Shown here piece after piece: positions 906 through 19,552 of a DNA stretch of 19,611 bases (its first letter is position 1; every line of letters starts with the position of its first letter). The stretch is from a virus (Duplodnaviria > Heunggongvirae > Uroviricota > Caudoviricetes). A program made the position numbers and the translations under genes. Location: positions 1-19,611 of IMG/VR virus record IMGVR_UViG_2585427757_000001. One strand, 5' to 3'. The notes under the pieces are model-generated. The model ran no database searches. It saw nothing but the letters and a program-made list of their open reading frames with translations, and was not told the DNA's origin.

Positions 906-2632
906 CACGAAAAAATTACGTGAACGTTAATGCCGCAAATCAGTATGCACGTGACGTGGTTCGCGGAAAAATTCAGGTTTGCCGTTATGTCGTTCTGGCC
1001 TGCCAGCGTCACCTTGATGACCTGGAAAATTCAGTTAAAAAAAACTATCCGTTTAAATTTGATAAAGATAAAGCTGAGCGGGTGGCGAAATTTATCCAGC
1101 TTTTGCCACACACCAAAGGAGAGTGGGCATTTAAGCGGATGCCCATTACGCTTGAACCCTGGCAGTTGTTCTGTATCTGTGTTGTGTTTGGGTGGGTGAG
1201 AAAAAAGAGCGGTCTGCGTCGATTTCGCGAGGCTTACAACGAAATACCCCGTAAAAACGGGAAATCAGCAATGTCTGCTGGCGTTGGTCTGTATATGTTT
1301 GCCTGCGATGATGAATTTGGCGCTGAAGTGTATTCCGGGGCCACAACAGAGAAACAGGCGTGGGAAGTTTTTCGTCCAGCCAGACTGATGGCGCAACGCA
1401 CGGAGCCATTGCGTGAAGCATTTGGTATTGAAGTACATGCTCAAAGCATGAGCCGTCCGGAGGACGGTGCCCGTTTTGAACCGTTGATTGGAGATCCCGG
1501 AGACGGCGCGTCGCCGAGTTGCGCTCTCATTGATGAATATCACGAGCATCAGACCGATGCACTTTACCAGACGATGCAAACCGGGATGGGGGCACGTCGT
1601 CAGCCGCTGATTTTTGGTATCACCACTGCGGGCTATAACATTGAAGGGCCATGCTACGACAAACGGCGTGAAGTGATCGAAATGCTTGAAGGGATTGTGC
1701 CCAATGATGAACTGTTCGGGATTATTTATACCATTGACGACGGGGATGACTGGACAGATCCGGCGGTATTGCGTAAAGCGAACCCCAATATGGGGATTTC
1801 TGTCTACAGTGATTACCTGTTATCTCAACAGCGCGCGGCAATTAACAACCCACGAAAAGTGGGCGTGTTCAAAACGAAACATCTGAATATCTGGGTGGCA
1901 GCAAAAGACGCCTTCTTCAATCTTGTAAACTGGCAGAAATGTGAGGACAGGAGTCTGACGCTGGAGCGTTTTGAGGGGCATACCTGCATTCTGGCGTTTG
2001 ACCTTGCGCGAAAGCTGGATTTGAACGCAATGGTACGGCTTTTTACCCGAGAGATTGACGGTAAAACGCATTATTATTGTGTCGCACCCAAGTTTTTTGT
2101 TCCCTACGACACAATCTATAGCGCTGATGTGACAGACAGTCGCACAGCAGAACGTTATCAGAAGTGGGTTGAAGGGGGATTTATTACCGTTACCGATGGT
2201 GCGGAAATTGATTACCGGGAGATCCTTGAGTCTGCGAAAGAAGCAAATCGCTTAAACGCAGTGGAGGAGTCACCTATAGATCCCCACGGAGCCACAAACC
2301 TTTCTCACCACCTTGCTGATGAAAACTTAAACCCTATTACCATCATTCAGAACTACACCAATATGTCGGATCCCATGAAGGAACTTGAGGCGGCTATCGA
2401 GGCCGGGCGTTTTCATCATGATGGTAATCCTGTGATGACATGGTGTGTCAGCAACGTGATTGGAAAGCACATTCCCGGCGACGATGATGTTGTTCGTCCG
2501 ATCAAACAAGGTAACGAAAACAAAATCGATGGTGCTGTGGCGCTGATTATGGCGATTGGTCGTTGCATGCTATTTGAGAAAGAAGACACGCTGTCTGATC
2601 ACATTGAGTCCTACGGGATCCGCTCGCTGTAA
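902..2632 (+). CDS. Terminase large subunit
   Basis: 576-aa ORF. N-terminal ATPase region with a Walker A-like GKS motif ([12 protein letters not shown]) and acidic stretches ([17 protein letters not shown]); C-terminal nuclease-like region; typical size and position. Confidence 0.92.
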
Positions 2633-2643
2633 CTGAGGTAATT

Positions 2644-2826
2644 ATGATCATGCTGATTCTCGCGCCTCTGGTGGGCGTGCTGGGTGCGATTTTGCTGGCG
2701 TATGGTGCCTGGCTGATTTATCCCCCGGCGGGGTTTGTTGTTGCCGGGGCGTTGTGCCTGTTCTGGTCGTGGCTGGTGGCGCGATATCTCGACCGTACAC
2801 AGTCGTCTGTCGGCGGAGGTAAATAG
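2644..2826 (+). CDS. Small hydrophobic protein, two predicted transmembrane helices, unknown function
   Basis: 60-aa ORF ([49 protein letters not shown]...). Good SD (gaggt 2633-2637) 6 nt before ATG; GC content matches flanking genes; sits between large terminase and portal. Confidence 0.5.
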
Positions 2827-4067
2827 TGTTCTTTTCGGGATTATTTCAAAGAAAAAGTAACGCACCGGTGACCACGCCAGCAGAGCTGGCAGATGCTATC
2901 GGGCTGTCCTACGACACCTATACCGGAAAGCAGATCAGCAGCCAGCGGGCCATGCGACTGACGGCGGTTTTTTCCTGCGTCAGGGTGCTGGCAGAGTCGG
3001 TCGGGATGTTGCCCTGCAATCTGTATCACCTGAACGGCAGCCTGAAACAGAGAGCCACCGGCGAACGTCTGCATAAGCTGATCTCCACGCATCCTAATGG
3101 CTATATGACGCCGCAGGAGTTCTGGGAGCTGGTGGTCACCTGTCTGTGTCTGCGGGGAAACTTTTACGCCTACAAAGTGAAAGCATTTGGCGAAGTGGCT
3201 GAACTGCTGCCCGTCGATCCCGGTTGTGTGGTACCGAAGCTTAACAGTAGCTGGGAGCCGGTCTATCAGGTCACATTCCTGGACGGCTCCACGGATGTAC
3301 TGAGCCAGGAAGATATCTGGCATGTGCGCACGCTGACGCTGGACGGTCTGGTGGGACTGAATCCCATCGCCTATGCCCGCGAGGCAATATCGCTGGCAGC
3401 TGCGACCGAAGAGCACGGGGCCAGACTGTTCAGCAATGGTGCGGTGACGTCCGGTGTGTTGCGTACAGAGCAGACGCTGTCGGATCAGGCTTATGAGCGC
3501 CTGAAGAAAGATTTTGAGGAGCGTCACACCGGGCTTGGCAATGCTCACCGCCCGATGATCCTTGAGATGGGGCTGGACTGGAAGTCGATGGCGCTGAACG
3601 CCGAGGACAGCCAGTTCCTGGAAACCCGCAAGTTTCAGCTTGAAGAAATCTGTCGTCTGTTCCGGGTGCCATTGCACATGGTGCAGAACACCGATCGCGC
3701 CACCTTCAACAATATCGAAGAGCTGGGGCTGGGATTTATCAACTATTCACTGGTGCCGTATCTGACCCGCATTGAGCAGCGGATCAACACCGGACTGGTA
3801 CGAAAAAGTAAGCAGGGCGTTTATTACGCCAAATTTAACGCCGGGGCGTTACTGCGCGGAGATATGAAGTCCCGTTTTGAAGCCTACGCCACCGGGATCA
3901 ACTGGGGAATTTACTCTCCTAATGACTGCCGTGACCTGGAAGATATGAATCCGCGTCCCGGTGGTGATGTCTATCTCACACCTATGAACATGACCACGAA
4001 ACCCTCCGATGGCAGTAAAGCCGGTAAGCAGAAGGATAACGCCAATGCAGACGAAACAACGTCTTGA
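2826..4067 (+). CDS. Portal protein (HK97-like family)
   Basis: 413-aa ORF. GTG start at 2826 preceded by SD ggaggt (2814-2819). Translation, size and position after terminase match HK97-family portals. Confidence 0.9.
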   Translation: MFFSGLFQRKSNAPVTTPAELADAIGLSYDTYTGKQISSQRAMRLTAVFSCVRVLAESVGMLPCNLYHLNGSLKQRATGERLHKLISTHPNGYMTPQEFWELVVTCLCLRGNFYAYKVKAFGEVAELLPVDPGCVVPKLNSSWEPVYQVTFLDGSTDVLSQEDIWHVRTLTLDGLVGLNPIAYAREAISLAAATEEHGARLFSNGAVTSGVLRTEQTLSDQAYERLKKDFEERHTGLGNAHRPMILEMGLDWKSMALNAEDSQFLETRKFQLEEICRLFRVPLHMVQNTDRATFNNIEELGLGFINYSLVPYLTRIEQRINTGLVRKSKQGVYYAKFNAGALLRGDMKSRFEAYATGINWGIYSPNDCRDLEDMNPRPGGDVYLTPMNMTTKPSDGSKAGKQKDNANADETTS

Positions 4068-5964: not shown

Positions 5965-6165
5965 ATGATCCTGAAACAAGATCTGAAATGGTCACCGGAC
6001 GGTATGCGTGTTGAGGTCATTCGGGCCGGTGAGTATGACGACGGGGCGCTTCCTGCCCAGGTGCAGGAGATTGCACTTCAGGCCGGGTTAGCAGAGCGCG
6101 GAATCAGTGCAAAAAGCAGTAAAGCGGCAAAAGAGAAAAAAGCCACGACCAGTAAAGAGGGCTGA
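5965..6165 (+). CDS. Small hypothetical protein between capsid and head-tail connector genes
   Basis: 66-aa ORF co-oriented with the operon, with a Lys/Ser-rich C-terminal tail (SAKSSKAAKEKKATTSKEG). Its stop sits 2 nt before the next gene's start. Confidence 0.45.
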   Translation: MILKQDLKWSPDGMRVEVIRAGEYDDGALPAQVQEIALQAGLAERGISAKSSKAAKEKKATTSKEG

Positions 6166-10224: not shown

Positions 10225-10373
10225 CGGCTGAATACCTCACTGATCGCTTCTTTGACTGCGCCAGCTACTGGCGCATTAATCCCTTCGAATTGCTGAATAT
10301 GCCGATCAGTGAAATTCCCTTGCTGGTCAGTCAGGCAAACAGGATAGAGCAGGAGAAACGCACACATGGCTGA
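10191..10373 (+). CDS. -1 frame extension of the tail assembly chaperone (GT-like fusion C-terminus)
   Basis: This ORF is in the -1 frame relative to 9955-10224, overlaps its last 34 nt, and ends 8 nt inside the tape measure gene. It has no convincing independent start (the track uses GTG). Confidence 0.55.
   Translation: MACGWVFSPGLTAEYLTDRFFDCASYWRINPFELLNMPISEIPLLVSQANRIEQEKRTHG
10204..10213 (+). promoter_or_regulatory. Candidate programmed -1 frameshift slip site (gggttttttc)
   Basis: A T6 run lies inside the overlap of the two chaperone frames. The zero-frame codons ggg ttt ttt can re-pair in the -1 frame (A-site ttt to ttt). Confidence 0.45.
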
Positions 10374-12198
10374 ATTTGAGCTTAAGGCGTTGATCACCGG
10401 TGTCGACAGGCTTTCTCCCGGGCTGTCGAAAATGCAAAAGAAAATCCGGGGATTTAAACGCCAGGCGGAAGAAGCGTCACAGGGTGGGCTGGCGCTTGGT
10501 GGAGGACTGGCAGCGGGGCTGACGCTTTCCCTGAAATCTTATGCCGATCAGGAAAACGCCGCTACCGGGCTGAAAGTCGCCATGATGGATGCGAACGGCG
10601 AGGTTGGAAAGAGCTTTCAGGACATCAATAAACTGGCTATTGGCCTGGGTAACCAGCTACCCGGTACAACGGCTGATTTCCAGAACATGATGCAGATGCT
10701 GGTGCGTCAGGGGATCCCGGCAGAAAACATTCTGGGTGGTGTGGGTAAAGCGACAGCTTATCTTGCGGTACAACTGAAAAAAACACCGGAAGCGGCTGCT
10801 GAGTTTGCTGCAAAGATGCAGGATGCTACCGGAACGGCGTCAGAAGACATGATGGGGCTGTTCGACACTATCCAGAAGGCGTTTTATCTGGGCGTTGACG
10901 ATACCAACATGTTGTCCTTCTTCACTAAAACCAGTTCTGTTCTGAAGATGGTGAACAAGGACGGTCTTCAGGCTGCACAGAGCCTTGCCCCCATCAGCGT
11001 CATGATGGATCAGATGGGGATGAACGGGGAGTCGGCAGGTAATGCCCTGCGAAAAGTTATCCAGTCCGGATTAAGTGTTAAGAAAATCAGGGACGTCAAT
11101 AAAGTCATGGCCCGCCAGAAACTCGGGGTACAGCTCGATTTTACTGACGGCAAAGGAAGTTTTGGCGGTCTTGATAACATGTTCAGGCAACTGGCAAAGT
11201 TGCGAAAACTGACCGACGTTAAGCGAACAGGCGTACTTAAGGCAATATTTGGTGATGATGCCGAAACCCTTCAGGTGGTCAATGCCCTGATCGATAAAGG
11301 AAAGGATGGCTACGATCAGATCCAGCAGAAGATGAATAAACAGGCCAGCCTGAATAAACGTGTTCAGGCTCAGCTTGGTACGCTGTCCAACCTGTGGGAG
11401 GCAATGACGGGGACCGCAACTAACGGTCTTGCAGCTATTGGCGGCGCATTTTCTGGTGACGCTAAAAATATCACGCAATGGCTGGGGGAGTTGGGGGAAA
11501 AATTCACGAAGTTTGCGGATGAAAATCCCCGGGTTATTCGCGGCGTCGTCGGGCTTGCTGCCGGTCTTGCGATTCTGAAACTGGGATTGATGGGCGTTGG
11601 CGGTGCCATCAGTATTGTCAGCAGGATCATGTCGATGACGCCGATTGGCATGATTGCGACGGCGATAGCCCTGGCTGCGGGATTAATTATCACTAACTGG
11701 GATGTTGTCGGACCTTATTTTAAGAAACTCTGGGAAACCATTGGTCCTTATTTTGAGGCTGGCTGGGAACTCCTTAAGAAAGTTTTTGCCTGGTCGCCGC
11801 TGGGGATGGTGATCAATAACTGGGGGCCGGTTGTTAAGTGGTTTCAGGATATGTGGGACAAGCTGAAGCCAATTATTGAGTGGTTTACCGACAGTTCCGG
11901 TGACACGGTCGATGCCATTAACTCTGCGCAGTGGGGCGCGGGTGCTTATGATGCTTATGGGACGGGAATACCGACGCGGGGATACACACCTTATCCGGCG
12001 GTGGATCCGGCTCAGTCAAACAACGCCTCCGATGCCACAGGCCCGAATCCCTTCATGATTAACAAAGCTATCGCGCCAAAAGTTGATGGCGAGATCAAGG
12101 TTTCATTTATGAATATGCCACCAGGTATGCGGGTTACGGAAACACGTTCCAGTGGCATTGATATTAATCACGATGTTGGGTACACCAGATTTAGGTAA
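10366..12198 (+). CDS. Tail tape measure protein
   Basis: 610-aa ORF with SD aggag (10351-10355). Long Ala/Gly/Leu-rich helical protein with a C-terminal hydrophobic segment and repeated W/GPYF motifs (GPYFKKLWETIGPYFEAGWELLKK...WGPVVKWFQDMWDKLK); position after the chaperone pair. Confidence 0.88.
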   Translation: MAEFELKALITGVDRLSPGLSKMQKKIRGFKRQAEEASQGGLALGGGLAAGLTLSLKSYADQENAATGLKVAMMDANGEVGKSFQDINKLAIGLGNQLPGTTADFQNMMQMLVRQGIPAENILGGVGKATAYLAVQLKKTPEAAAEFAAKMQDATGTASEDMMGLFDTIQKAFYLGVDDTNMLSFFTKTSSVLKMVNKDGLQAAQSLAPISVMMDQMGMNGESAGNALRKVIQSGLSVKKIRDVNKVMARQKLGVQLDFTDGKGSFGGLDNMFRQLAKLRKLTDVKRTGVLKAIFGDDAETLQVVNALIDKGKDGYDQIQQKMNKQASLNKRVQAQLGTLSNLWEAMTGTATNGLAAIGGAFSGDAKNITQWLGELGEKFTKFADENPRVIRGVVGLAAGLAILKLGLMGVGGAISIVSRIMSMTPIGMIATAIALAAGLIITNWDVVGPYFKKLWETIGPYFEAGWELLKKVFAWSPLGMVINNWGPVVKWFQDMWDKLKPIIEWFTDSSGDTVDAINSAQWGAGAYDAYGTGIPTRGYTPYPAVDPAQSNNASDATGPNPFMINKAIAPKVDGEIKVSFMNMPPGMRVTETRSSGIDINHDVGYTRFR

Positions 12199-12230: not shown

Positions 12231-12677
12231 TTACTGTGCGAACACGCAATTTCGGCCTGATGGGGAGCCGACAATTCTGGACATTTTTTCGCAAATAACA
12301 GTTACTTGTTCTCCTTTTTTAAGAGCAGCAGCTGTTGATTTTTCAGAGTCTTGCATCTCCATTCTTGCTGGCATGAATTCATTTTCAGTTCTGAATTTAA
12401 TAATTATAGAGTCAGTAAAGTCCTTATCAATGGATTGTACGATACCTCTAACGGCGATTAATTTACCTTTTAACTGTTCATCGGTAGCGACTTCATTTTC
12501 TTCATACTCTTTAAACAGCTGTCGAGCAGTAGTGTTGTAGATTTCTTTTTGCGGTGCCGCAGCTTCCGTATCGGATGAGTATGAAGAATTAGAGCCTTTA
12601 TCGTTATTGCCTGCAAAATATCCAATAATCACCAACCCGATGAAAATATATAAAATCCATTTTAATAATTTCTTCAT
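12231..12677 (-). CDS. Membrane-anchored protein of unknown function with a putative OB-fold-like extracytoplasmic domain; antisense AT-rich moron
   Basis: 148-aa ORF on the opposite strand to the operon. Strong SD on the minus strand (aaggtga, 5 nt before ATG). N-terminal hydrophobic anchor (KKLLKWILYIFIGLVIIGYFAG) without a lipobox Cys, a Ser-rich linker, then a ~100-aa domain (KGKLIAVRGIVQSIDKDFTDSIIIKF...LKKGEQVTVICEK). The surrounding DNA is markedly AT-rich compared with the flanks. Confidence 0.7.
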   Translation of the reverse strand: MKKLLKWILYIFIGLVIIGYFAGNNDKGSNSSYSSDTEAAAPQKEIYNTTARQLFKEYEENEVATDEQLKGKLIAVRGIVQSIDKDFTDSIIIKFRTENEFMPARMEMQDSEKSTAAALKKGEQVTVICEKMSRIVGSPSGRNCVFAQ

Positions 12678-12739: not shown

Positions 12740-14116
12740 ATGGCATTACCAGTAAATATTACTACTGATAATAAATATGGGACTTATATGACGTGGAAAG
12801 ACAGGCTTCAGGATGCGTCATTTCGCAGCGTGCCGTTTAAGGTTGAAGAAGAAAGTGCGGGAACCGGTCGCCGTGTGGAAACACATGAATACCCGAACCG
12901 CGACAAGCCCTATACCGAAGATCTGGGAAAAGTCACTTTCCGCCCGTCCATCACAGCTTATGTGGTGGGAGATGACTGCTTTGACCAGCGCGATCGCCTG
13001 ATTGAAGCGCTGAATAAACCCGGTCCCGGCACACTTGTCCACCCGACATATGGTGAGCTGAAAGTCTGTGTTGACGGGGAAGTTCGGGTCAGCACATCGA
13101 AAAGTGAAGGGCGTATTGTCCGCTTTGACCTGAAGTTTGTCGAAGCAGGAGAACTCTCTTACCCCACATCAGGTGCGGCGACGGCGCAGACGCTGATGTC
13201 ATCCTGTTCTGCACTGGATGACTGCATCAGTGACAGCTTCAGCGGTTTCAGTATCGATGGTGTGGCGGATTTCGTGCAGAACGACGTTATCGGTAATGCC
13301 AGCACAATGCTTGGGTATGTTTCTGATGCGATGAAAGTGGTGGATTCTGCCGTATCGGATGCCGCCAGGCTGTTGCAGGGGGATATCTCGGTACTTCTGC
13401 CGCCGCCATCCTCAGGCAAAAATTTCGTTGAGCAGGTGCAGAAAATGTGGCGTACCGGGAAACGCCTTTATGGTAACGCCAGCGACCTGGTCACCATGAT
13501 CAAAACGCTTTCCGGTGTCAGCCTCGGCAGCGATCTGCAACCGCGCGGCGTCTGGAAAACGGACAGTAAAACCACCGCCACGGCGACGCAGCAGCGTAAC
13601 GTGGTTGCCAGCACCCTTCGTACGACCGCAATCAGCGAAGCGGCGTATGCCGTCACCCGATTGCCTGCGCCAACAACTTCCGCGGTGATGCAGAATTCCG
13701 CAGTGGGGCAGGCAACAACACCCGCGCAGAGCACTGGCTGGCCTTCCGTCACGCATCCGGCACTGAACAATGCACCGGCGGTGAAAAACACGGTTGACCT
13801 GCCAACGTGGGAAGAACTGACCGACATTCGCGACACACTGAATACGGCAATTGATAAGGAGTTGTCCCGTACAACCAGTGATGCGCTGTTTCTGGCGCTG
13901 CGCCGGGTGAAAGCAGATCTGAATGCGGATATCAACACGCGCCTTGAACAGTCTGCACGGATCATTCAGCGCACACCGGATGAGGTTTTACCCGCGCTGG
14001 TGCTGGCGGCGACCTGGTTTGATAACGCGGCGCGTGACGCGGACATTATCCGGCGTAATGCCATTACGCATCCCGGCTTTGTGCCGGTGATCCCTCTGAA
14101 GGTGCCAGTGCAATGA
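12740..14116 (+). CDS. DNA circularization protein (Mu N-like)
   Basis: 458-aa ORF directly after the tape measure region, as in Mu-type tails. ATG 12740 lies in the AT-rich insert; the next in-frame ATG at 12788 (MTWKDRLQD...) is an alternative start. Confidence 0.8.
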   Translation: MALPVNITTDNKYGTYMTWKDRLQDASFRSVPFKVEEESAGTGRRVETHEYPNRDKPYTEDLGKVTFRPSITAYVVGDDCFDQRDRLIEALNKPGPGTLVHPTYGELKVCVDGEVRVSTSKSEGRIVRFDLKFVEAGELSYPTSGAATAQTLMSSCSALDDCISDSFSGFSIDGVADFVQNDVIGNASTMLGYVSDAMKVVDSAVSDAARLLQGDISVLLPPPSSGKNFVEQVQKMWRTGKRLYGNASDLVTMIKTLSGVSLGSDLQPRGVWKTDSKTTATATQQRNVVASTLRTTAISEAAYAVTRLPAPTTSAVMQNSAVGQATTPAQSTGWPSVTHPALNNAPAVKNTVDLPTWEELTDIRDTLNTAIDKELSRTTSDALFLALRRVKADLNADINTRLEQSARIIQRTPDEVLPALVLAATWFDNAARDADIIRRNAITHPGFVPVIPLKVPVQ

Positions 14117-18534: not shown

Positions 18535-18978
18535 ATGAACTCAGTATTCTTTTCACCCGGAAGTAAAAGTTTTTATCTGCAAGAATTGTTTCCAGAATAT
18601 GAGGATGCGGGAACGCTTCCTGATGATGTTATTGAAATTACCAGAGAAACATATGAGCAATTTCTTGGGCTGCATCCAGAAGGGAAAGAAATTGGCGCTG
18701 ACAGTTCAGGACGGCCAGTATGGATTAATTCCCCACCCCCTTCAAAAGAGGATGAGGTGTTGACGGCTGAAATGAAAAAAATATCTTTGGTTTCTGAAGT
18801 CAATACCTACATCAATACTCATCAGTGGCCTGGCAAAGCGGCGATTGGTCGTCTGAAAAGTGAGGAACTGGCGCAATATAATTTGTGGCTGGATTATCTG
18901 GACGCACTGGAACTGGTTGATACCTCCAGTGCTCCAGATATTGAATGGCCTACGCCTCCGGCAGTTCAGGCCAGATGA
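18535..18978 (+). CDS. Tail fibre assembly protein (Tfa)
   Basis: 147-aa ORF directly after the fibre gene; C-terminus (...LDYLDALELVDTSSAPDIEWPTPP...) shows the Tfa-type motif. Confidence 0.8.
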   Translation: MNSVFFSPGSKSFYLQELFPEYEDAGTLPDDVIEITRETYEQFLGLHPEGKEIGADSSGRPVWINSPPPSKEDEVLTAEMKKISLVSEVNTYINTHQWPGKAAIGRLKSEELAQYNLWLDYLDALELVDTSSAPDIEWPTPPAVQAR

Positions 18979-19552
18979 CATCCGGCGCGGTGCTGGTATC
19001 TGTTGCCGTCACCGTGTCAATGTAATCCAGCACAGCGTTAAGGCGAGTGATTTCTGCTTGCGTCAGCTGCCGCCCGGCCTGTAATTTCAGCTGAATCAGA
19101 CTGATGGAAGCCATAGCAGCATCAATCAGCGACTGGCGCTGTGCTTCTGCCACGTCTACTGCGGCGCTATGCTGTGCCTCAGTATCGGTCACCCATTTCT
19201 CACCATCCCATTTATCGAATGGCGTTAACGGGGCGATAGTAGTTGTATTTTCAGGGTAATCACCCGGAGCTGTGATTTCTTTTGATTCTCCTGTTTCAGT
19301 GCTATATACCGTTTCACCGCGATGATCTGGCACATATTCCCATGAGTTAAAATCTGCAGAACGGCAAATTGCATAACCAGCTTTATATGAGCCAGGAGCA
19401 TCTAAACAGGAACATGCCGGAATACCGACGCCAACCGCAAGATATTCAGTTGATGTGGAAATATATTCCCGCGTTTCACCATCATAATTATAAATGGTAA
19501 TGTCTCCCGCTTTTATGGCAATGAGTTCGTTATTTAATACGGCTTTATTCAT
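18950..19552 (-). CDS. Second tail fibre assembly protein, inverted orientation (Tfa')
   Basis: 200-aa minus-strand ORF with SD on the minus strand (gaggg, 6 nt before ATG). Its C-terminus (...LDYIDTVTATDTSTAPDVIWPELPEA) parallels the + strand Tfa C-terminus; the two genes converge and overlap by 29 bp (18950-18978). Confidence 0.8.
   Translation of the reverse strand: MNKAVLNNELIAIKAGDITIYNYDGETREYISTSTEYLAVGVGIPACSCLDAPGSYKAGYAICRSADFNSWEYVPDHRGETVYSTETGESKEITAPGDYPENTTTIAPLTPFDKWDGEKWVTDTEAQHSAAVDVAEAQRQSLIDAAMASISLIQLKLQAGRQLTQAEITRLNAVLDYIDTVTATDTSTAPDVIWPELPEA

Follow-up and report, generated by a model that had tools for sequence, protein, structure and literature searches.

The gene at positions 2644–2826 (+ strand) of the 19,611-nt stretch of phage DNA that we analyzed, hereafter the window, is near certainly ymfR of an SfV/phiP27/e14-type prophage and lies in the late structural operon. 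The gene is already known and named (YmfR, IPR020297, PHROG 502), and what the present analysis adds to it is the reach of its family and its fixed position. As judged from comparison of the loci, the position of this small gene between those for the large terminase subunit (TerL) and the portal protein, and its apparent coupling to the portal gene, are conserved in phages whose hosts range from E. coli to Lactobacillus and Mycobacterium. In the searchable literature, no paper describes this conserved position or coupling. The HK97-type head and packaging module is among the best-studied parts of virus biology, yet it holds a hairpin gene without an assigned function, which roughly one in four complete E. 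coli genomes carry and which also occurs in phages of three or more bacterial phyla.

The window protein is identical at 59 of 60 residues to E. coli K-12 YmfR (b1150, e14 prophage), which has the same length and neighbors and differs in nothing of substance. The window ymfR is thus another allele, set in an intact head module, whereas the K-12 gene in e14 is flanked by remnants, of the TerL gene (aaaE) on its 5′ side and of the portal gene (beeE) on its 3′ side. In K-12 MG1655, b1150 is labeled ‘IPR020297 domain-containing protein YmfR’ of the e14 cryptic prophage, IPR020297 being the InterPro entry of YmfR. The protein also matches PHROG 502, ‘membrane protein’ (phrog_502, E 1.5e-28, residues 1–55), a family that PHROGs places in the category ‘moron, auxiliary metabolic gene and host takeover’. 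RefSeq lists ‘ymfR: protein YmfR’ between ‘terminase large subunit’ and ‘phage portal protein’, and several RefSeq-annotated E. coli strains carry a gene with 100% DNA identity to the window ymfR. By megablast, ymfR is present in 1343 of 5426 complete E. coli genomes, with a median of one copy and a maximum of four. The surrounding DNA (2400–3100) is ~91% identical to phiP27, SfII, SfIV, SfI, ST64B and related phages, and the same gene appears as L37 in phiP27, sb3 in ST64B, orf3 in SfII and gp3 in phiKO2. It is annotated as ‘putative integral membrane protein’ in phiP27 and ST64B, with a similar call in SfII. A preceding examination of the window, made from its letters alone and here called the sequence-only reading, had remarked that a membrane protein is unexpected among packaging genes; since the gene was already named and catalogued, this is an overstatement for anyone who annotates prophages. 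In E. coli ECGI0523 (locus L144, 1225–2598), ymfR is intact and the downstream portal gene is split into pieces of 157 and 276 aa so that, as in K-12 e14, ymfR outlasts the decay of the head module.

Searches of the literature for ymfR returned incidental mentions, in which it figures among co-induced e14 genes or serves as a neutral site for integration, and no functional study of YmfR; a search for small membrane proteins encoded at the terminase-portal junction yielded general text on holins only, and a search for phrog_502 gave no result. Expression of K-12 ymfR rose by log2 4.5, together with that of ymfL, ymfM and ymfQ, under an SOS-inducing siderophore-ampicillin conjugate (PMC10012262). 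The gene has also been used as a neutral integration site, its deletion being without cell phenotype (PMC9145139), and it is listed in e14 excision deletions.

The ymfR open reading frame has an ATG start and 60 codons, followed by a TAG stop. The TerL gene precedes it (902–2632, +; PF03354, E 4.6e-25, and PF20441, E 3.6e-41) and ends in a TAA at 2630–2632, with ymfR starting 11 nt further on; 5′ of TerL, Pfam identifies a P27-type TerS and an HNH endonuclease. On the other side lies the gene for an HK97-type portal protein (2826–4067, +; PF04860, E 2e-107). Pfam therefore agrees with the neighbors assigned in the sequence-only reading, and the 60-aa ORF with a good Shine-Dalgarno sequence that it described is present, with GAGGT at 2635–2639 (+), 4 nt 5′ of the ATG. 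The same reading gave ymfR the composition of its neighbors. This holds only roughly: the GC content of 59.6% (GC3 0.69) is near that of the portal gene (55.2%, 0.66) and above that of TerL (48.5%, 0.50), and the excess of GC fits a peptide rich in Gly, Ala, Pro and Leu rather than foreign origin.

The 3′ end of ymfR is built into the start of the portal gene. The portal Shine-Dalgarno sequence GGAGG (2815–2819, +) falls within Gly-Gly codons of ymfR, 6 nt 5′ of the portal GTG, and a ‘GG-x’ C-terminus recurs among ymfR homologs. In the sequence TAGTG (2824–2828, +), the ymfR stop (2824–2826) and the portal start (GTG from 2826) share one base, and this junction directly supports translational coupling of the two genes. 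A scan of 2300–3200 found zero promoter-like sites, and the terminator-like sites that it returned around ymfR were weak consensus matches only. Folding of 2625–2720 gave a z of 0.32, hence no RNA structure signal, and the CCCCCGGCGGGG hairpin in ymfR is simply P-P-A-G coding. An RNA element or terminator within ymfR was rejected on the folding score and the weakness of the terminator-like matches. The GenBank record of SfII places a ‘putative rho-independent terminator’ in the 5′ part of ymfR (L005, 2370–2419; window ~2652–2701), an annotation that the folding and the scan do not support.

The sequence-only reading had proposed that conservation of the ORF be checked in related phages. A word-indexed search recovered 161 close relatives, Enterobacterales throughout, and a profile search of 1.84 billion cluster representatives recovered 413 clusters at 50% identity with E ≤ 1e-3. 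The best 150 of these 413 matches are short except for one 1523-aa protein, and nearly all have 45–110 aa; no fusion of the hairpin to TerL or to the portal was seen among them. The 1523-aa match was rejected as a fusion because it is spurious, and long open frames in high-GC loci were likewise rejected as fusions. The family core reads G-x2-G-x6-GAW-x2-Y-x-PAG-x4-G. All 74 diverse members that we aligned match phrog_502, while Pfam has no family for the window protein, neither Pfam nor NCBIfam has one for any of the 74 members, and the PADLOC defence models gave no match to YmfR.

Viral contigs and bacterial genomes were also scanned with a degenerate DNA pattern that encodes the core (G-A-W-x-[IV]-Y-x-P-A-G-[FY]). 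All 120 matches in viral contigs lie in frame within small family ORFs, as do 51 of the 52 matches in bacterial genomes within such ORFs. The bacterial matches within Proteobacteria come from Enterobacterales, Burkholderiales, many Alphaproteobacteria and Halopseudomonas, and the others from Ruminococcaceae, Solirubrobacteraceae and a Mycobacterium genome assembled from a metagenome. Proteobacteria, Firmicutes and Actinobacteria thus all have prophages that carry the family. In a set of 36 distinct alleles from enterobacteria, the annotated frame has the lowest dN/dS (0.47, against 0.60–1.39 in the other five frames), with 0.39 for the helices, 0.67 for the C-terminal tail, and 0.06 and 0.13 for the flanking TerL and portal segments. 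These values point to moderate purifying selection on ymfR among close relatives, as would be expected of a protein in which Ile, Leu, Val and Met are interchangeable, and the deep conservation is the stronger evidence of coding.

In the loci checked, the gene is found in one slot. The ORF downstream of the family gene is a PF04860 portal in 22 of the 23 viral loci tested and the ORF upstream is TerL in 16 of 17; after de-duplication, the next ORF in viral loci mostly starts at −1 or −4 from the stop of the hairpin gene. These downstream portals are mostly 20–44% identical to the first (reference) portal, with one near-duplicate at 92%. In the bacterial loci, an ORF of at least 200 aa starts between −29 and +14 from the stop in 43 of 51 cases (25 at −1 and 9 at −4), and the remaining loci are mostly cut by contig ends and include at least one frameshifted portal. 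All ten downstream bacterial ORFs tested are portals, including those of the Ruminococcaceae, Mycobacterium and Solirubrobacteraceae loci. Yersinia YeP1, Pseudomonas VW-6S and Klebsiella ST101-KPC2phi6.3 have the same arrangement, as has Lactobacillus phage J-1 with its gp3, GYGAFLINKPTGFMVCGG. We delimited the YmfR family by similarity to K-12 YmfR together with an HMM match, a length of ~50–70 aa, two hydrophobic helices with the W-x2-Y-x-P-A-G turn, and the TerL-portal slot, the last being an empirical feature established in the present analysis, and the window protein shows all of these features.

Presence of the hairpin gene is patchy when phages are chosen by their portals. We sampled 16 phages by portal similarity alone and scanned them with an HMM made from the 74-member alignment, which found a hairpin ORF in about six, four of them clear and two weaker. 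The clear ORFs, in the slot and with E values of 4e-8 to 4e-5, are those of Vibrio K303, Ralstonia YO079_4, Edwardsiella EPP-1 and Mycobacterium JuicyJay (gp12); the weaker matches, which have the same architecture, are Geobacillus NIIg9.7 gp03 (E 0.016) and Vibrio P3 (E 0.05). The HMM found no hairpin ORF in the other ten, including HK97-like mEp506 and Streptomyces phiBT1, where TerL directly adjoins the portal. With about ten of 16 sampled phages lacking the gene, HK97-type heads can evidently assemble without the hairpin. We also sought a feature of the portal that follows the presence of the hairpin gene and found none, the N-terminal portal motif M-x-GLFG being present both with and without it.

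Other phages with a PF04860 portal carry unrelated cargo between TerL and the portal: a homing endonuclease in Xanthomonas MK21, a PAPS reductase in an Oscillospiraceae phage, and a RelB/ParE-like pair with an acidic 67-aa protein in Streptococcus Javan38 (cargo-bearing junctions at L132 780–1454, L127 719–1495 and L129 436–1333). The junction is therefore a permissive, general insertion slot, and the hairpin is its sole recurrent, vertically kept occupant.

The sequence-only reading described a highly hydrophobic membrane protein of two helices, and the predictions bear this out. YmfR has a GRAVY of 1.23 and its first charged residue is R47; hydropathy divides it into two hydrophobic stretches, residues 2–25 and 31–46, parted by YPPAG. 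AlphaFold, run with the 74-sequence alignment, returned a helical hairpin with helices at residues 2–25 and 27–56 (mean pLDDT 87). Helix 1 (residues 2–25; 2647–2718, +) carries a small-residue face formed by G11/G14/G21(-A22), along with the aromatics W23 and Y20. The tight turn Y26-P-P-A-G30 (2719–2733, +) lies within the most conserved stretch, G21–G35, and is followed by helix 2 (residues 31–46 by hydropathy; 2734–2781, +), along which G30/A34-G35/C38/S42/A46 form a second small-residue stripe. The polar, basic C-terminal tail R47…K60 (2782–2823, +) is poorly conserved, and its last codons are the portal ribosome-binding site. Among the 74 diverse members, G35 is present in all, G14 and G21 in 73 each and W23 in 63. 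In the turn, Y26 is kept in 57, P28 in 68, A29 in 56 and G30 in 66 of the 74; in helix 2, I32 is kept in 59 and S42 in 41, and position 47 is Arg or Lys in 56 of 73.

The distribution of charge gives the hairpin a direction. In a set of 110 cluster representatives, the two uncharged helices span a median of 17 and 16 residues, and Lys plus Arg average 2.1 residues N-terminal of helix 1, 0.12 in the loop and 2.5 C-terminal of helix 2. The nearest charge N-terminal of helix 1 is Asp in 53 of these 110 proteins, and helix 2 is followed by a basic residue (Arg or Lys) in 86. The positive-inside rule would place both termini in the cytoplasm, with the turn facing outward. We infer that YmfR inserts into the membrane, and the predicted form is an N-in/C-in hairpin in the cytoplasmic membrane with the W-x2-Y-x-P-A-G turn at the outer face. 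A fold search of PDB and BFVD with the AlphaFold model returned just the hairpin of V-ATPase subunit e (E 5.9) and uncharacterised viral hairpins, and a profile search of PDB sequences with the family gave no match.

The small-residue stripes suggest that the hairpins may pack together as dimers or larger rings. Tandem duplications occur in the family (P0156, P0177, P0185 and P0200): these proteins have 102–122 aa and two hairpins, each with GAW…PAG, which hints that the functional unit holds at least two hairpins. The small-residue faces and the duplications together thus suggest packing of hairpin against hairpin.

We tentatively favor the possibility that YmfR assists the head and packaging module as a late, dispensable accessory factor and would act with the portal at the cytoplasmic membrane. 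The TerL-portal linkage, fixed in all three phyla, points to a role bound up with that module. A conserved accessory factor had been among the suggestions of the sequence-only reading, and the deep conservation and strict position support that much of it, the mechanism being a proposal of ours. In this proposal, the overlap of the ymfR stop with the portal start would lead to YmfR and portal being made together. The YmfR hairpins would sit in the cytoplasmic membrane with both ends inward, where they may contact the portal and would supply a membrane site or chaperone for new portal subunits, for the prohead initiator or for the packaging complex. If YmfR is such a partner of the portal at the membrane, it bears on the old question of how exactly one portal ring is built and placed at one capsid vertex.

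A parallel to this proposed role is found in phage T4, in which assembly of the gp20 portal initiator takes place at the inner membrane and involves gp40 and the host YidC (PMC9958956). The T4 gp40 protein is a phage-encoded inner-membrane factor that works on the portal as head assembly begins, which is the job proposed for YmfR; the two are likened by that job as unrelated proteins, between which no sequence relationship is expected. T4 gene 40 is not adjacent to gene 20. A more specific and more doubtful form of the proposal is that a ring or patch of hairpins in the membrane nucleates or holds the portal dodecamer or the packaging motor, and that this is widespread in HK97-type assembly and packaging. 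Were it true, the initiation of head assembly at the membrane, which has so far been peculiar to T4, would be a common trait of temperate phages in Gram-negative and Gram-positive hosts alike.

Several features of YmfR weigh against a role with the portal. Very little of the protein would face the cytoplasm: an N-terminal tail is missing from the enterobacterial proteins, and the C-terminal tail, of 14 aa, is the least conserved part of the protein (dN/dS 0.67). The conserved residues instead lie inside the membrane and at the outward turn, and YmfR presents no obvious conserved surface for binding of a soluble portal. Moreover, start/stop overlaps are common throughout the late operons of phages, and coupling by itself therefore argues only weakly for a physical partnership. 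Conservation within the membrane and minimal cytoplasmic parts would fit a host effector or a holin-like oligomer equally well.

The first of these alternatives is a host-directed small membrane effector, in which the hairpin would modulate a conserved host membrane protein or the bilayer late in infection and the adjacency to the portal would merely reflect the timing of expression. Many bacterial small membrane proteins regulate larger ones. Consistent with such a role, conservation is in the membrane and the outward turn rather than on cytoplasmic surfaces, the PHROGs category includes host takeover, and the hairpin gene is dispensable in many portal relatives. We nevertheless consider it unlikely. 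The family occurs in Gram-negative and Gram-positive hosts, which would call for an almost universal target; all copies checked occupy the TerL-portal slot, an unusual constancy for host-takeover cargo, and the true cargo of that slot is sporadic and unrelated. The lack of a PADLOC match also argues against it. If YmfR does act on the host membrane, it is an unusually universal small effector.

A holin-like or lysis-timing protein, that is, a class II pore former or antiholin that would oligomerize via its glycine stripes and affect membrane potential or lysis timing, appears improbable. Class II holins and pinholins, such as S68 of phage 21, are small proteins with two TM helices in an N-in/C-in arrangement, glycine or small-residue faces and late expression. 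YmfR resembles them in size, in its basic C-terminal tail and small-residue stripes, and in having two N-in/C-in TM domains as predicted from hydropathy, AlphaFold and charge. Its expression is apparently lytic-phase, given the absence of a promoter-like site and the e14 co-induction, and ymfR has Met codons at positions 1 and 3. The M1/M3 pair, however, is not conserved among ymfR homologs, so that the family, unlike class II holins, has no conserved dual start. The gene also lies outside the lysis cassette: the identical prophage of strain B7A has a separate cassette of two holin-family genes and an M15 endolysin gene ~3.4–4.5 kb upstream, before the HNH gene, and the phiP27 endolysin gene L30 is upstream as well. 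None of the 74 members matches a holin family in Pfam or NCBIfam, and a holin-like function would leave the portal linkage across phyla unexplained.

Also improbable, and somewhat more so, is a virion-associated ejection or pilot protein, present in a few copies at the portal or head and inserting into the recipient membrane during DNA entry. The gene adjoins that of the portal and would be co-translated with it, and a weakly hydrophobic, Gly/Ala-rich hairpin could conceivably switch between sequestered and membrane-inserted states. But profile and fold searches found no relative in solved structures, and we found no report of YmfR in the virion. Tape-measure and tail-tip proteins normally do the job of DNA entry in sipho- and myoviruses, and insertion into the membrane of the producer cell during synthesis would keep YmfR out of proheads.

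Very improbable is a prophage-expressed moron for superinfection exclusion, of the kind of HK97 gp15 or T4 Imm, which would keep the DNA of incoming phages from entering the cell. Small membrane proteins do serve as exclusion genes in other phages, these two among them, and YmfR resembles both as a small phage-encoded inner-membrane protein, here encoded in the structural block. Exclusion morons such as HK97 gp15 and T4 Imm show early or prophage expression and a sporadic distribution, whereas YmfR has a fixed position, is co-induced with other e14 genes in K-12 and lacks a promoter of its own, the scan having found zero promoter-like sites and only weak terminator-like matches, with no RNA structure (z 0.32). 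Its location is constant in all loci checked, its presence being patchy only at the scale of the whole portal family, and the same slot and overlap are kept with portals only 20–44% identical to the reference portal. Deletion of K-12 ymfR had no cell phenotype in a study in which phage exclusion was not assayed. Hence the suggestion of the sequence-only reading that a host-interaction or exclusion protein is carried in this slot is not favored, given the absence of a promoter-like site, the e14 co-induction and the fixed position. From the late-operon setting, the coupling to the portal, the lack of a promoter of its own, the e14 co-induction and the separate holins, we infer that YmfR is neither a lysogen-expressed exclusion moron nor the main holin of the phage.

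That the ORF arose by chance in GC-rich spacer, the case that would have undone the sequence-only reading, or that it is a mere translational leader for the portal, is excluded as judged from conservation at the protein level: its last codons do carry the portal Shine-Dalgarno sequence, its stop overlaps the portal start and its dN/dS of 0.47 is merely moderate among close relatives, but the peptide motif is conserved across phyla although the DNA differs, one HMM matches all 74 members with G14, G21 and G35 invariant or nearly so, and the pattern scans of viral and bacterial sequences matched almost wholly in-frame small ORFs.

Two labels that databases attach to the gene, ‘moron’ (PHROG) and ‘head-tail joining protein W’ (several GenBank records), are not supported. 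The second is given to the ymfR homolog in GenBank ON470603, ON470584, ON470580 and PQ793804. Lambda gpW is a soluble head-tail joining protein; its gene has a similar size and the same place, between A (large terminase) and B (portal), and the label apparently came from this position in the lambda order A-W-B. In contrast to gpW, YmfR is hydrophobic (GRAVY 1.23) and uncharged over residues 1–46, and the Pfam gpW family gave no match to YmfR even at E values up to 1. A hydrophobic hairpin without similarity to gpW makes the ‘W’ label a misannotation.

Three other places in the window drew attention. Directly 3′ of the major capsid gene is a 66-aa ORF (5965–6165, +) without a Pfam match, whose counterpart in the identical B7A prophage is labeled ‘hypothetical protein’. 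The lone reverse-strand gene of the tail module (12231–12677, −) lies between the tape-measure gene (10366–12198) and a Mu-N-like DNA_circ_N gene (12740–14116) and encodes a 148-aa protein with a tRNA_anti-like OB-fold (PF12869, E 2.9e-19). Its product gave no PADLOC match, and it looks like a moron. Finally, two convergent tail-fibre assembly (Caudo_TAP) genes at 18535–18978 (+) and 18950–19552 (−) overlap at their 3′ ends, and the pair resembles the edge of an invertible tail-fibre segment such as those of e14 (pinE) and Mu (G).
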